Notes under the pieces: model-generated | Database searches by the model: none | Told to the model about the DNA's origin: nothing | The model's input: the letters and a program-made list of their open reading frames with translations, nothing else | Made by a program: the position numbers and the translations under genes | Source: Candidatus Parcubacteria bacterium | Lineage (GTDB): Bacteria > Patescibacteriota > Minisyncoccia > Phycocordibacterales > UBA2100 | Direction: 5' to 3' | DNA length: 64,000 nt | NCBI GenBank assembly: GCA_041168925.1 | Contig: JBEEJY010000010.1 | Span: 12,430-76,429 of the forward strand | In this document: one piece after another, positions 27,769 through 31,281 of the stretch | Layout: every line of letters begins with the position of its first letter | Position numbering within the stretch: position 1 is the stretch's first letter

Positions 27769-28089
27769 CTACAATTTGAATACTTTGCGCAATATCAGAT
27801 CGACTCGGGCACATACGGCTTTTTCGGCCATGCCTAGCTCACCGAGCACTATCAGCTTTTGCAGTGTCGCGACCTTGTCCACCTTTATCACGGAATCGAC
27901 TTTGAGACCGTTCGCTTTCGTCGCACGAATTGGGACATCGAATGGCCCTCTCTTTGTGCTGATGGACGACACGAACGCGACGATGCAATCCTCTCCCCTC
28001 GAGACATACAACACGAGAGCGGGCCGTACTTTTTGCCCTGACAGGTCGGTAAACGGGAACGGCACAAGGACAAGCCGCCCTTTACCCAT
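27769..28089 (-). CDS. MazF/PemK-family toxin (mRNA interferase)
   Basis: RLVLVPFPFTDLSGQKVRPALVL is the PemK/MazF signature. Overlaps the upstream antitoxin by about 8 nt. Confidence 0.8.
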   Translation of the reverse strand: MGKGRLVLVPFPFTDLSGQKVRPALVLYVSRGEDCIVAFVSSISTKRGPFDVPIRATKANGLKVDSVIKVDKVATLQKLIVLGELGMAEKAVCARVDLILRKVFKL

Positions 28090-28333
28090 AGCGCTTCTTC
28101 AAGTCCGAAACGGAATACAGTTCAGGCTCTCGAGAGAGAAAATCGAACGAACGTGAATACGCGTTGACGTTGGTGATGTCGTTCAGTGAATCGTTGTAAC
28201 TCTGCGGGAAGCCGATGAGCACTGCATCGATATCGCGACGTCTTCCTATCCCAAAGACTTCGCCGCGGTATCGCGCGCGGTTCACGATCTCTTTGATGTA
28301 TTTCCGAGCATTGGTGGTTGAAAGTACTTTCAT
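28082..28333 (-). CDS. Phd/YefM-type antitoxin
   Basis: MKVLSTTNARKYIKEIVNRA...GEVFGIGRRRDIDAVLI matches the Phd/YefM family. The track ORF starts at an upstream TTG; the ATG at about 28333 is preferred. Confidence 0.6.
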   Translation of the reverse strand: MKVLSTTNARKYIKEIVNRARYRGEVFGIGRRRDIDAVLIGFPQSYNDSLNDITNVNAYSRSFDFLSREPELYSVSDLKKRYG

Positions 28334-28367
28334 GTACACAGTGTACAAACCCGGCTTATGGTGTCAA
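28334..28367 (-). promoter_or_regulatory. promoter TTGACA-N16-TACACT-N6-ATG with a 13-bp perfect palindrome GTACACAGTGTAC overlapping the -10 and the start (autoregulatory operator candidate; leaderless)
   Basis: Seen on the minus strand immediately upstream of the Phd/YefM ATG; the -35 overlaps the hisK-like gene stop. Confidence 0.5.
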
Positions 28368-29191: not shown

Positions 29192-29443
29192 TTATGCTTT
29201 TAGAGCAATGCCGGCTTTCTGCGCGATCTGCTTGATCCACCGTTCGTGTCTGCTAATCTGCCCACTTATCGCAGCATACCCCAACAGCAGTTTGTCAACG
29301 GTACTGGCGAGTTTATCGAACCCTAGCATGAGGTCATGAATTGACTTCTTGATCTCGACAAGTTCTTCTCGAACTATTTTTCTGACACCTTCCTTCGTCG
29401 GAAAGAGGTGCATCAACTTATCGATGTCTTTATTCGTCAGCAT
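29192..29443 (-). CDS. hypothetical small protein (83 aa), immediately upstream of the histidine kinase
   Basis: ORF preceded by GGTATACTGGCGGC-ATG (the same promoter-like block as the RelE antitoxin). No recognisable domain. Confidence 0.4.
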   Translation of the reverse strand: MLTNKDIDKLMHLFPTKEGVRKIVREELVEIKKSIHDLMLGFDKLASTVDKLLLGYAAISGQISRHERWIKQIAQKAGIALKA

Positions 29444-29586
29444 GCCGCCAGTATACCATTTCCCTATACCGCGCGCAGGCTTGAAGGAATCTCGGCGGGA
29501 GAAAGACCCGCGAGAAACGGTGCCGCCGCCTCCCTGCAGACCTCGTGCGAAGCTCGGCCGAACAGCCGCTCATACTGCGCGACGCA
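29441..29586. repeat. about 145-bp direct repeat, copy 1 (49 bp identical, then about 75% identical); contains a 48-aa ORF whose C-terminal 38 aa mimic the C-terminus of the 30124..31281 membrane protein
   Basis: Copy 2 at 30101..30246. In the shared coding frame the divergent part has about 15 synonymous versus 5 conservative non-synonymous differences. Confidence 0.7.
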
Positions 29587-29591
29587 GCGTA

Positions 29592-29879
29592 CTAGTGATC
29601 TTCTGACCATGGCCCTCGCCGTTCATCGCGGATGTGCAGTATCTGAACTTCCGTACGGTCAACCTGATAGTAGACGTGGTAAGGATACGGGGCGATATGA
29701 AGTTCGTGCACTCCTTTTTCTTCCGTTTGAGGCGCTACTAGAGGAAATTCCGAAAGCAACGCGATGCGGTGTTCGATGGTTTTTTTCACTCCACGAGCCG
29801 CCTGCGGCGCAGGCTGATCTATGTAACGATAGATCGCCTCAAGATCACGCCGCGCCCGCGGCGTGTATCGCACTCTCAT
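29592..29879 (-). CDS. RelE/ParE-family toxin
   Basis: ...YHVYYQVDRTEVQILHIRDERRGP matches the RelE/ParE fold signature. 4-nt overlap with the upstream antitoxin. Confidence 0.8.
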   Translation of the reverse strand: MRVRYTPRARRDLEAIYRYIDQPAPQAARGVKKTIEHRIALLSEFPLVAPQTEEKGVHELHIAPYPYHVYYQVDRTEVQILHIRDERRGPWSEDH

Positions 29880-30103
29880 ACTCCATGGCGTTTGAAGAAA
29901 GCATTCATGCTTTTATCACTTACAAATTGACCGCGCCTCGCTTGCGCCAATCCCTCGCGTATTGCTGCACGAGTCTCGGCGTCGAGAGGTATCGGGGCTT
30001 TTTGCCTCGATGCTATCGAAAAGAGTATCGCCGCTGCCTCGTTTTGGTCGTCCGCTGATAATCTCTTAGCCCTAGCGATTGCCCGCTCTAATAGCTTGGT
30101 CAT
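29876..30103 (-). CDS. antitoxin of the RelE/ParE module (ParD/addiction-module-component-like, 75 aa)
   Basis: Small alpha-helical protein (MTKLLERAIARAKRLSADDQNEAAAILFSI...) whose stop overlaps the toxin start. Confidence 0.6.
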   Translation of the reverse strand: MTKLLERAIARAKRLSADDQNEAAAILFSIASRQKAPIPLDAETRAAIREGLAQARRGQFVSDKSMNAFFKRHGV

Positions 30104-30246
30104 GCCGCCAGTATACCATTTCCCTATACCGCGCGCAGGCTTGAAGGAACTTCATCAGGAGAAAGGCTTGCGATGAGAGGTGCCGCGGCTTCTCTGCACA
30201 CCTCATGCGAGGCTCGGCCGAAGAGCCGCTCGTATTGCGCAACGAG
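30101..30246. repeat. about 145-bp direct repeat, copy 2 (covers the last about 40 codons and stop of the 30124..31281 gene plus the antitoxin promoter and start)
   Basis: See copy 1. Confidence 0.7.
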
Positions 30247-31281
30247 CTTGTCGAGAGCCGCCTTCGGGTCATCTGCTTGTATGACCGCAGCTTTCTGTTG
30301 CATGTTGATCGACATACCAGGCACTTTTCCTGCTTCGCTCCACGCCAGAGGGCCGATGACGAGAGATTGCTCAGTGATTATTTTAGATGCGAGTTGGTTA
30401 AAAATAGCCGAAGCCACGCTAAGAACGCCGGAAGTCTTCACTTCAGGGTAAGAGGTTTTTATTGCATTGAACGTGATCGAGAGCTGGACGAGGCTCGCCG
30501 CCATGAAGACGTACGCGAGCATGTAGAAGGTATCTGTAATGCCACCAACGACGAACGTGCCCTGATTGGCCTGATAGAGGAAGGTGAAGTCGGAAATGTA
30601 TTGCATAACGAGAGCCACGATGAATCCCATCATCGGAAAACGCATGATGCCTCCGAGGGTGCGCCAGGTCAGCAATAGCGCGAGGATGGCTGCGGAGATG
30701 TAGAGCGCATCGCCGAGCGGATATCCGAGATCAAGAAATATCTTAAGCGGCTGCGACCAATCGAATTGGTACCCGCGCAAGAATACGAAGAACGAGAGCA
30801 AGAGCATGAAGAGCGGCACCACCAAGCCCTGCGTAATGTTCTCCAGAGAGCGCAGTGCGTTGCGGGCGCCGCCAGCTTTCGCCAAAAGCAGCGCCCCGTA
30901 GACGTAGAGCGGGATGGTCGAGAAAAATCCGAGGTCGGCTATCGAAGGATAGGGTAGCTCGCCACCGGTAATAGTGTAGTAACTCGATATGCATTGTCCG
31001 AAGAGTTCGCCGCACAATCCGAGTGCAAAGGCAATGCTGGCGCGACCGATGACACTATTCCACCCGCCCCACAAGCGGCTATAGAAAAGTCCGCACACAA
31101 CACCAACAAGTGCAAGCATCTGGTAGGAAGCGCCCCATATCTCGATGTCAAGGTCGAGATTAGGGAAGTTCGCGGAGAAGAAAAGGAGTACGAGCCGCCA
31201 CGCAACGACTACGGCGAAGAGACCAACGAGAAGAAGGCCTGCCGTGCTCTTCAGAAATTGCCCTACGGTCGAGTCGAACAT
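30124..31281 (-). CDS. polytopic membrane protein of unknown function (385 aa, about 8-9 TM)
   Basis: Many hydrophobic helices. The C-terminal soluble tail (...VAQYERLFGRASHEVCREAAAPLIASLSPDEVPSSLRAV) is the sequence duplicated in the repeat. Confidence 0.6.
   Translation of the reverse strand: MFDSTVGQFLKSTAGLLLVGLFAVVVAWRLVLLFFSANFPNLDLDIEIWGASYQMLALVGVVCGLFYSRLWGGWNSVIGRASIAFALGLCGELFGQCISSYYTITGGELPYPSIADLGFFSTIPLYVYGALLLAKAGGARNALRSLENITQGLVVPLFMLLLSFFVFLRGYQFDWSQPLKIFLDLGYPLGDALYISAAILALLLTWRTLGGIMRFPMMGFIVALVMQYISDFTFLYQANQGTFVVGGITDTFYMLAYVFMAASLVQLSITFNAIKTSYPEVKTSGVLSVASAIFNQLASKIITEQSLVIGPLAWSEAGKVPGMSINMQQKAAVIQADDPKAALDKLVAQYERLFGRASHEVCREAAAPLIASLSPDEVPSSLRAV

Follow-up and report, generated by a model that had tools for sequence, protein, structure and literature searches.

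We studied a locus in a 64,000-nucleotide stretch of a contig from a Candidatus Parcubacteria bacterium (JBEEJY010000010.1, positions 12,430 to 76,429; we call this whole stretch the window), where a putative toxin-antitoxin (TA) pair lies between two copies of the end of a gene for a membrane protein. The minus strand carries every gene at this locus, in the order 385-aa protein, 75-aa open reading frame (ORF), ParE/RelE toxin, a 48-codon frame, 83-aa ORF, histidine kinase, a Phd-like/PemK pair, and the genes for the tryptophanyl- and aspartyl-tRNA synthetases (TrpRS and AspRS). One copy of the gene end (copy 2) is the working 3' end of the membrane-protein gene, and the other (copy 1) lies between the toxin gene and the 83-aa ORF. 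We believe that copy 1 is probably a non-functional scar of homology-anchored recombination with the DNA of a diverged relative, at a junction that is a hotspot for insertions.

A direct repeat around a toxin-antitoxin pair

In the window, a repeat scan found one long direct repeat (29441-29584 and 30101-30244; 144 nt, 85% identity, 660-nt spacing). A previous interpretation that was made without database searches (the sequence-only reading) had already described this repeat around the TA pair, with a length of 145 bp. Read on the minus strand, both copies close with the same 49 bp, TTCCTTCAAGCCTGCGCGCGGTATAGGGAAATGGTATACTGGCGGCATG. This block consists of the last 7 codons of the gene, the stop codon TAG, a 21-nt spacer, and an ATG, which is the start codon of the antitoxin in copy 2 and of the 83-aa ORF in copy 1. 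The 49 bp are identical in the two copies, as had been reported, and if we allow 3 mismatches then the block still has just two matches in the window (and 0 in 100 shuffles).

Ahead of the block, the copies have diverged. Across 32 codons, 22 of 96 nt differ (77% identity), with 4, 1, and 17 differences at the first, second, and third codon positions. In a codon-wise comparison of copy 1 to copy 2, 17 differences are synonymous and 5 are non-synonymous but conservative (F/L, L/I, G/S, A/D, and I/V). The sequence-only reading had noticed this synonymous bias, which holds up in a codon-wise alignment, although its figures (about 75% identity and about 15 versus 5 differences) were slightly off. 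By the Nei-Gojobori method, the rate of synonymous substitution (dS) is ~0.93 and the rate of non-synonymous substitution (dN) is ~0.06, for a dN/dS of ~0.065, and the excess of synonymous differences is significant (P = 1.4e-6, binomial test). When we compared copy 1 to the alignment of the family, all of the family-invariant residues in the repeated part were retained.

A run of 49 identical bases beside 23% divergence is improbable (P ~3e-6), so the repeat is a mosaic. Near the repeat's 5' edge, the longest identical run is 11 nt. If one 1-nt gap is allowed, then the similarity perhaps extends 6-8 nt further towards the toxin's stop codon, but this stretch is too short for a judgement about microhomology. 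The repeat scan did not identify any inverted repeats at the boundaries of the repeat. The repeat does not seem to be an RNA element either: it has no match in Rfam at E up to 1, and its predicted folding is no better than that of shuffled sequences (z = 0.41).

The repeat is real. The same structure is present, at 100% identity, in contigs from two samples from the Joint Genome Institute (JGI; L002 and L173/L174). A Logan contig from a third sample contains an identical membrane-protein gene and ends 4 nt past that gene's stop codon, which is where an assembly graph with k=31 would break on a 49-bp exact repeat. The agreement between the two JGI samples, together with this explanation for the end of the Logan contig, argues against an assembly artefact. 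We also looked up the membrane protein, the 83-aa protein, and the antitoxin by exact match to find haplotypes with an empty site, and these look-ups returned the same structure only.

The toxin was originally described as RelE/ParE-like, and this is supported by matches above the cutoffs to PF05016 (53.6 bits; the cutoff is 23) and to NCBIfam's TIGR02385 (32.6 bits; the cutoff is 27.9). The toxin gene is full length, as its homologues are of 94-97 aa. The 75-aa ORF has no match in Pfam or NCBIfam. Another contig (L092) has a homologous pair in the same order (56% identity for the antitoxin and 58% for its partner). Given the toxin's family and the overlapping and conserved partner, we predict that this is a type II TA pair of the ParE/RelE type. 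We did not find the same pair at the same hotspot elsewhere: no homologue of the toxin was more than 64% identical, and those with available DNA are on short contigs whose contexts are unrelated. The 516 bp between the copies contain the two TA frames only, with no gene for a recombinase or a transposase. The coordinates of these features are given in Table 1.

Table 1. Features at the locus, in the order in which they are read on the minus strand.
Feature	Coordinates	Strand	Basis or remark
385-aa membrane-protein gene: hydrophobic part of ~275 aa fused to C-terminal domain of ~94 aa	30124-31281	-	ORF and homologues
Conserved C-terminal domain of the membrane protein	roughly 30127-30408	-	Standalone homologues; no Pfam or NCBIfam match
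Repeat copy 2: working 3' end (39 codons), stop codon, 21-nt spacer, antitoxin ATG	30101-30244	-	Repeat scan
49-bp block, identical to 29441-29489	30101-30149	-	TGGTATACT 6 nt before ATG; GGTATA-N7-GGTATA
Putative antitoxin, 75 aa, with 4-nt overlap with the toxin's start	29876-30103	-	ORF; homologous pair in L092
ParE/RelE-family toxin, 95 aa	29592-29879	-	PF05016, TIGR02385
Unique DNA (516 bp) separating the copies: TA frames, from codon 2 of the antitoxin to ~7 nt beyond the toxin's stop codon	29585-30100	-
Repeat copy 1: putative remnant of the last 39 codons, stop codon, spacer, ATG of the 83-aa ORF	29441-29584	-	Positions 51-94 of the domain model (seen in the identical contig L002)
48-aa ORF: 9 unrelated codons and the 39-codon remnant; probably not a gene	29464-29610	-	ORF list
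83-aa ORF, function unassigned; second occupant of the insertion site	29192-29443	-	ORF list
Histidine kinase, 272 aa	28364-29182	-	Pfam HATPase_c and synteny in L004, L003, and L010
Second inserted TA pair: a Phd-like antitoxin with a PemK/MazF toxin, flanked by the kinase and TrpRS	27769-28348	-

Gene order and gene-end duplicates at other loci

We fetched 174 loci, and we surveyed gene order in the 86 distinct loci that had at least 3 kb of sequence downstream. A histidine kinase lies downstream on the same strand in 79 of the 86 loci: it is directly adjacent in ~70 of them and follows inserted genes in ~10. In a relative from the Kaiserbacteria (L004), the membrane-protein gene is followed 16 nt later by the kinase and then by TrpRS, AspRS, ScpA, ScpB, and a peptidase. 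The window has the Kaiserbacteria order plus two inserts: one is made up of the ParE pair, the remnant, and the 83-aa ORF, and the other is the PemK pair, which separates the kinase from TrpRS.

In L004 and in most of the other loci, no 83-aa ORF separates the membrane gene from the kinase. Because the kinase usually adjoins the membrane or domain gene, the 83-aa ORF is another occupant of the junction and not part of its deep ancestral order. The ancestral neighbourhood was probably the membrane protein followed directly by the histidine kinase, judging from these comparisons, and not the order of membrane protein, 83-aa ORF, and kinase that the sequence-only reading had proposed. A homologue of the 83-aa ORF (29% identity, E = 1e-6) lies directly after the domain gene in a locus from the Staskawiczbacteria (L145, 10366-10623), and small proteins of this family may occupy the junction recurrently. 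We suggest that the TA pair and the 83-aa ORF be viewed as inserts that interrupt a conserved pair of membrane sensor and kinase. Across genomes, the junction between the domain gene and the histidine kinase collects accessory genes in about one genome in ten.

We then ran a hidden Markov model (HMM) of the conserved C-terminal domain against the six-frame translations of all 174 loci. Extra copies of the domain are present in 11 loci, and all of them are on the same strand as the gene. The truncated extra copies start at HMM positions 16 to 68, and nearly all of them reach the C-terminal end of the domain. The arrangement at our locus, with a 5'-truncated copy of the gene end in the same orientation and non-homologous DNA in between, is found in the window and in 10 further loci.

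The closest relative that we found (L003, a 107-kb contig) encodes a membrane protein with 66% identity to that of the window. The last ~47 codons are present a second time, 2.3 kb downstream of the gene, and the DNA between the copies encodes an unknown 166-aa protein, a nucleoside hydrolase, and a kinase-like protein, with no TA pair. The two copies in L003 share identical runs of 20-32 nt. Because L003 has a duplicated gene end without TA genes, the duplication is not specific to the TA pair. The sequence-only reading had listed a duplication without the TA genes in relatives as a finding that would count against it, and L003 is such a case in part, with other cargo. It seems that the TA pair was carried passively into a hotspot for recombination. 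The earlier view that the TA module is a mobile insertion is correct in that the module was inserted into the junction, but it does not look like a self-mobile cassette.

In six other loci (L037, L056, L068, L130, L030, and L090), 5'-truncated fragments lie between units of cargo. In the arrays that we checked, we did not find any integrase or transposase among the cargo proteins. A ParE pair is present as cargo in the window and in L068, and L037 has two pairs in which a PIN toxin accompanies an RHH-type antitoxin (for the second pair, the match is weak). Across the loci, the other cargo includes GNAT, NUDIX, HIT, ASCH, tRNA-editing, radical-SAM, kinase-like, and nucleoside-hydrolase genes.

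The largest array, with five copies, is in L068 (1-7100). It begins with the membrane gene and the domain gene, which are followed by genes for tRNA-editing and radical-SAM proteins, a second domain gene of full length, genes for ASCH and HIT proteins, a nearly full copy with a frameshift, a short remnant, the ParE pair, and a final decayed trace (LERLVAQYGRQYGG). The full second domain gene has 85% nucleotide identity, with 28 synonymous and 11 non-synonymous differences. In L056 (3016-4538), there are three copies of the gene end within 1.5 kb. Homologous ORFs of 51 and 55 aa follow the first and second copies, so the repeated unit includes the downstream gene. The 5' part of the third copy follows the first copy in L056 and its 3' part follows the second. 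This recombinant shows that the copies exchange sequence, so a conversion tract is a reasonable source for the 49-bp identity in the window. In both L003 and L056, the homology between the copies ends at the stop codon, and there is no shared block downstream.

The synonymous bias is also seen in other remnants (14 synonymous and 2 non-synonymous differences in L130; 28 and 11 in L068; 21.5 and 10.5 in L037). In 9 comparisons, there was no young, near-identical pair of remnants, and the proportion of synonymous differences (pS) was always at least 0.4, which fits copies that had diverged before they were brought together. The remnants range from fresh (the window, L130, L068, and the first remnant in L037) to partly decayed (L003, L056, and the second remnant in L037) to frameshifted or truncated (L068 4679-4947 and L030), and some are cut to 20-30 codons. 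Such a series would be expected if these are non-functional pieces that decay after they arrive.

A few other loci have unusual arrangements of this gene. L022 (678-4502) and L036 (115-3036) contain two or three full-length fused paralogues of the membrane protein plus domain, either in tandem or flanking the kinase. In L090 (11401-11538), the 500-aa histidine kinase has at its N-terminus an in-frame fusion to a partial copy of the domain, which covers its middle (HMM positions 25-71). L164 (2474-2599) has an isolated remnant (HMM positions 50-91) that lies 7.4 kb upstream of the membrane gene, beyond the conserved upstream neighbours, which suggests a rearrangement. In L068, an rve-type transposase-like ORF has its tail immediately upstream of the membrane gene.

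Origin of the duplicated gene end

We propose that the junction in this genome took in DNA from a diverged relative. The resident sequence there is the conserved last half of the ~94-aa domain, which is either fused to the membrane protein or encoded by a separate gene, upstream of the kinase gene. At one end, the incoming DNA would pair with the resident via the conserved domain sequence, and at the other end it would join illegitimately, within ~8 nt of the toxin's stop codon. Events of this class are known as homology-facilitated illegitimate recombination, or C-terminal displacement. The outcome would be a resident and a donor version of the last 39 codons, with the ParE/RelE pair in between. 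With so strong a constraint on the domain, we expect mainly synonymous differences between any working copies that come from separate lineages; and if each version diverged inside the working gene of its own lineage, this explains why nearly all of the differences are synonymous. This proposal corresponds to one of the two readings that had been offered from the sequence, in which the gene end evolved in a working orthologue in a diverged relative, and it fits the data best.

The 49-bp identity would then be a later tract of gene conversion or crossover between the copies. Alternatively, a circularised fragment might have integrated in the manner of Campbell, with the crossover inside the tract. 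The geometry would fit equally well, but the identity of the block would be needed beforehand. The identical tract would carry a likely leaderless promoter, so the antitoxin and the 83-aa ORF would be behind the same signal. The proposal assumes natural competence for this organism; competence has been shown in Saccharibacteria, which is another lineage of Patescibacteria (PMC10633639). We infer the donor, the joining mechanism, and the origin of the identical tract from these patterns.

The composition of the DNA gives a weak hint as to which copy was imported. In core genes, the GC content at third codon positions (GC3) is 0.64-0.68. Copy 1 is above this range, at 0.72, and copy 2 (0.53) and the TA genes (0.49-0.52) are below it. 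This might indicate that the working end and the TA pair are the import, and that the remnant beside the 83-aa ORF is the displaced native end.

Several observations weigh against our proposal, or at least against its details. The hint from GC3 is not significant, as copy 2 is at the 16th percentile of core-gene windows. We did not find a donor allele or a relative with an empty site, and the closest relative is at 66% identity, so the direction of import and a history with a single event are tentative. Copy 1 is 78% identical to copy 2 over 78 nt and is 82% identical to a Kaiserbacteria gene. Synonymous sites are saturated, so the relative ages of the copies cannot be ordered, and searching for the nearest DNA neighbour among the 174 loci did not single out either copy as the native one. 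The 49-bp identity requires either a second step (conversion) or an unusual donor, and no one-step model gives both this identity and the adjoining 23% divergence. The block ends exactly at two natural start codons and the insert is trimmed to two TA frames. These boundaries are tidier than we would expect from random illegitimate joining, although a compact genome and selection for intact cargo can account for this. Finally, in L130, it is the more distant remnant that is better preserved, which does not fit the rule that the newest unit should be next to the gene.

Another way to obtain two gene ends is duplication in place. Copy 1 would be an old remnant from this same lineage that was partly overwritten, repeatedly, by gene conversion from the working gene. 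The mosaic tracts of identity in the window (49 bp), in L003 (20-32 nt runs), and in L056 (the recombinant copy) are all consistent with this, and the tails of the remnants are closer to the resident gene than to the genes from other genomes. We nevertheless consider it improbable. The unconverted 96 nt are saturated at synonymous sites and yet have just 5 replacements, all conservative, and neutral evolution of this part is rejected (P ~4e-4). The 9 comparisons did not reveal any young, near-identical pair, and most relatives lack a remnant, with different arrangements in the two closest genomes. If we consider duplication in place with neutral decay, then ~60% of the differences should be non-synonymous, versus 23% in the window, so we rejected this model (again with P ~4e-4), and L037, L068, and L130 reject it as well. 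The sequence-only reading had argued against a simple target-site duplication on the same grounds, and we agree.

Similarly, it is unlikely that the cassettes are captured by a site-specific recombinase that is encoded elsewhere. The attachment site would be the gene end or the 49-bp block, and the cassettes would integrate successively, in the manner of integron or prophage attachment sites or of cis-mobilisable elements. Integrases that target gene ends do leave direct repeats of 3' ends, such as icd/icdC around prophage e14 (PMC13626634), and there are arrays of units in L037, L056, L068, and L130. However, the cargo of every array that we checked lacks an integrase or transposase, and the break points are spread over HMM positions 16 to 68, with no single core. 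At our locus, the trimming of the insert to exactly the TA pair, the end of the identical block at two start codons, and the GGTATA-N7-GGTATA repeat within the block might all reflect an attachment site. But the identical bases lie along the repeat's 3' edge, and near the 5' edge no identical run exceeds 11 nt; the homology in L003 and L056 stops at the stop codon instead of continuing into a shared block; and the boundaries have neither inverted repeats nor unusual folding.

A broader version of this idea is that the conserved gene end, as a short sequence that stays almost the same in distant lineages of these ultra-small bacteria, is a dedicated capture-and-exchange site for small, promoter-carrying cassettes, often TA pairs, which are inserted, stacked, and swapped between diverged genomes. 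This seems quite improbable to us, as do its further parts: that a recombinase possibly acts in trans, that the retained copies serve as homology arms, and that the system is integron-like without an integron integrase.

The sequence-only reading had also raised the possibility that the 48-aa ORF is a real gene under purifying selection. The frame does exist, but we think that a selected gene is very unlikely. If it were real, the protein would be just the C-terminal helices of the domain, coupled translationally to the toxin gene and perhaps modulating the kinase. The ORF is open, and its ATG lies inside the end of the toxin gene, 16 nt before the toxin's stop codon. It also keeps every family-invariant residue of the repeated part, with a dN/dS of ~0.065, but a low ratio is equally expected for any fragment that is fresh from a working orthologue. 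The remnants in L003 and L056 are open with start codons too, and the frame in L003 is a called gene. Against this, the left ends vary by locus, so there is no conserved start or N-terminus, and some remnants are frameshifted or cut to 20-30 codons (L068 and L030). The remnant begins inside the helix at 56-71 in a predicted structure of the compact domain (confidence, or pLDDT, of 92), so it is not a folding unit. The gene calls from JGI do not list a gene there. We recommend that the 48-aa ORF be annotated as a gene fragment.

The remaining alternatives can be dismissed quickly. It is extremely unlikely that two co-occurring strains were joined via the shared 49-bp block during assembly: this is a metagenome-assembled genome (MAG) and one short-read contig does break inside the block, but joining of this kind would not explain how the toxin gene came to adjoin the remnant, two different JGI samples yielded the identical structure, and a 49-bp repeat is shorter than ordinary reads. 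We rejected the possibility that the copies are silent cassettes for C-terminal variation (like pilS or Rhs), as they encode nearly the same peptide. We also rejected the target-site duplication of a transposon, as 144 bp is too long, the copies are 15% diverged, and there are no inverted repeats and no transposase.

How does recombination with a diverged relative compare to known systems? In naturally transformable bacteria such as Neisseria, minimal mobile elements are variable cassettes without mobility genes that, in different strains, lie between the same two conserved genes and are probably exchanged by homologous recombination in the flanks. By itself, this model does not yield duplicated gene ends. 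[quoted passage not shown] In both cases, there is an anchor in a conserved part and a non-homologous joint, orphan 3' pieces lie downstream in the same orientation, and arrays form without an integrase. In the account of the Rhs and T6SS loci, clean replacements by double homologous recombination are common and scarred ones are rare (PMC5361080), and we see the same split in the loci that we surveyed. In contrast to our locus, the displaced ends in those systems are different toxin tips and the cargo is immunity genes, with a clear selective logic. Here, the peptide ends are nearly identical, the cargo consists of unrelated accessory genes (for TA pairs or small enzymes), and the gene itself putatively encodes a component of signalling. 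The mechanism was inferred there, as it is here.

The icd/icdC pair around prophage e14 in E. coli K-12 also comprises a working end and a C-terminal pseudogene with mostly synonymous and few conservative changes (PMC13626634, which cites Hill et al. 1989). The e14 case resembles our locus in that the insert lies between a working gene end and a C-terminal fragment, with mainly synonymous differences. It differs in that e14 has its own integrase and a fixed attachment core, while the 516-bp insert has no recombinase and the break points vary between loci. The identical tract is also at the opposite, gene-distal edge of our repeat, relative to the arrangement at e14.

Integron cassettes are another comparison. 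They are small, often lack promoters, and are frequently TA pairs, and they share with our inserts a single orientation and a single site. Unlike in integrons, the repeats at our locus are the coding sequence of the neighbouring gene, and there are no attC-like imperfect inverted repeats at the boundaries. None of the genes at the locus encodes a recombinase, including intI, but a genome-wide search for intI was not made.

Recombination footprints of this kind are known, and the locus provides a new example from a new gene and from a phylum that has been little studied. Of greater interest are two by-products, namely the recurrent hotspot and the conserved domain, which is uncharacterised. If we are correct about its origin, the locus is a concrete and datable footprint of exchange between diverged Patescibacteria, which have tiny genomes and few recognisable mobile elements. 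This mechanism would give such genomes a route to gain TA pairs and small enzymes without integrases, and it would supply, for genetics in these bacteria, natural homology arms whose use is proven.

A candidate shared start signal, the conserved domain, and the PemK pair

The sequence-only reading had described the 49-bp block as promoter-like. The block contains TGGTATACT-N6-ATG, but a plain scan for sigma-70 promoters (-35 and -10 boxes) did not report a promoter within it. In the homologous pair from L092, TGATATACT-N8-ATG precedes the antitoxin, which starts at the equivalent residue. By inspection and by comparison to L092, the block plausibly provides a leaderless start of the extended -10 type, so the earlier description may be right. 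The antitoxin and the 83-aa ORF both sit behind this candidate signal. Across the whole window, TANNNT is found 5-8 nt before the ATG of 22 of the 90 ORFs of at least 150 aa, and a Shine-Dalgarno-like motif is found 4-10 nt before the ATG of only 8 of them (this list of ORFs may include shadow frames), which suggests that many genes in this genome have leaderless starts. The GGTATA-N7-GGTATA direct repeat in the block (29441-29475 and 30101-30135) overlaps the -10-like element, and it could be an operator for the antitoxin.

An identical membrane protein is assigned by its database source to a MAG of Candidatus Parcubacteria. Among the homologues of this protein, most have ~273 aa and lack the last ~100 residues, which are present in a minority of ~370-385 aa. 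Using the last 102 residues as the query, we found 658 database clusters, and the best matches are nearly all standalone proteins of ~94 aa (from Paceibacterota, Zambryskibacteria, Colwellbacteria, and others). The aligned members of the family are 56-74% identical to the window's domain, and LVAQYERLFGRASHEVCREA is nearly invariant in this alignment of an extremely conserved domain. In most Parcubacteria, a separate gene for the ~94-aa domain lies between the ~273-aa membrane protein and the histidine kinase (this domain corresponds to 30127-30408 in the window; P0082-P0201). The domain looks like an undescribed component of a three-part sensor.

In AlphaFold's confident model, the domain comprises a long helix and a short one, then a beta hairpin and two more helices; the remnant's start falls inside the helix at 56-71. 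Comparing this fold to solved structures gave nothing significant, with weak H-NOX-like matches (TM ~0.48, E above 1). GC3 drops from ~0.7-0.8 in the part of the gene before it to 0.41-0.53 where the C-terminal domain begins (30124-30470, or the last ~110 codons). These values are near those of the TA genes, so the imported tract might be longer, but the drop could equally be no more than a feature of local composition.

The second insert in the window, the PemK pair, lies just beyond the kinase. We looked for a duplicate of the end of the kinase gene around this pair, and none is left. The pair has a sigma-70-like promoter, TTGACA-16-TACACT (28367 to 28340), which overlaps the kinase's stop codon.

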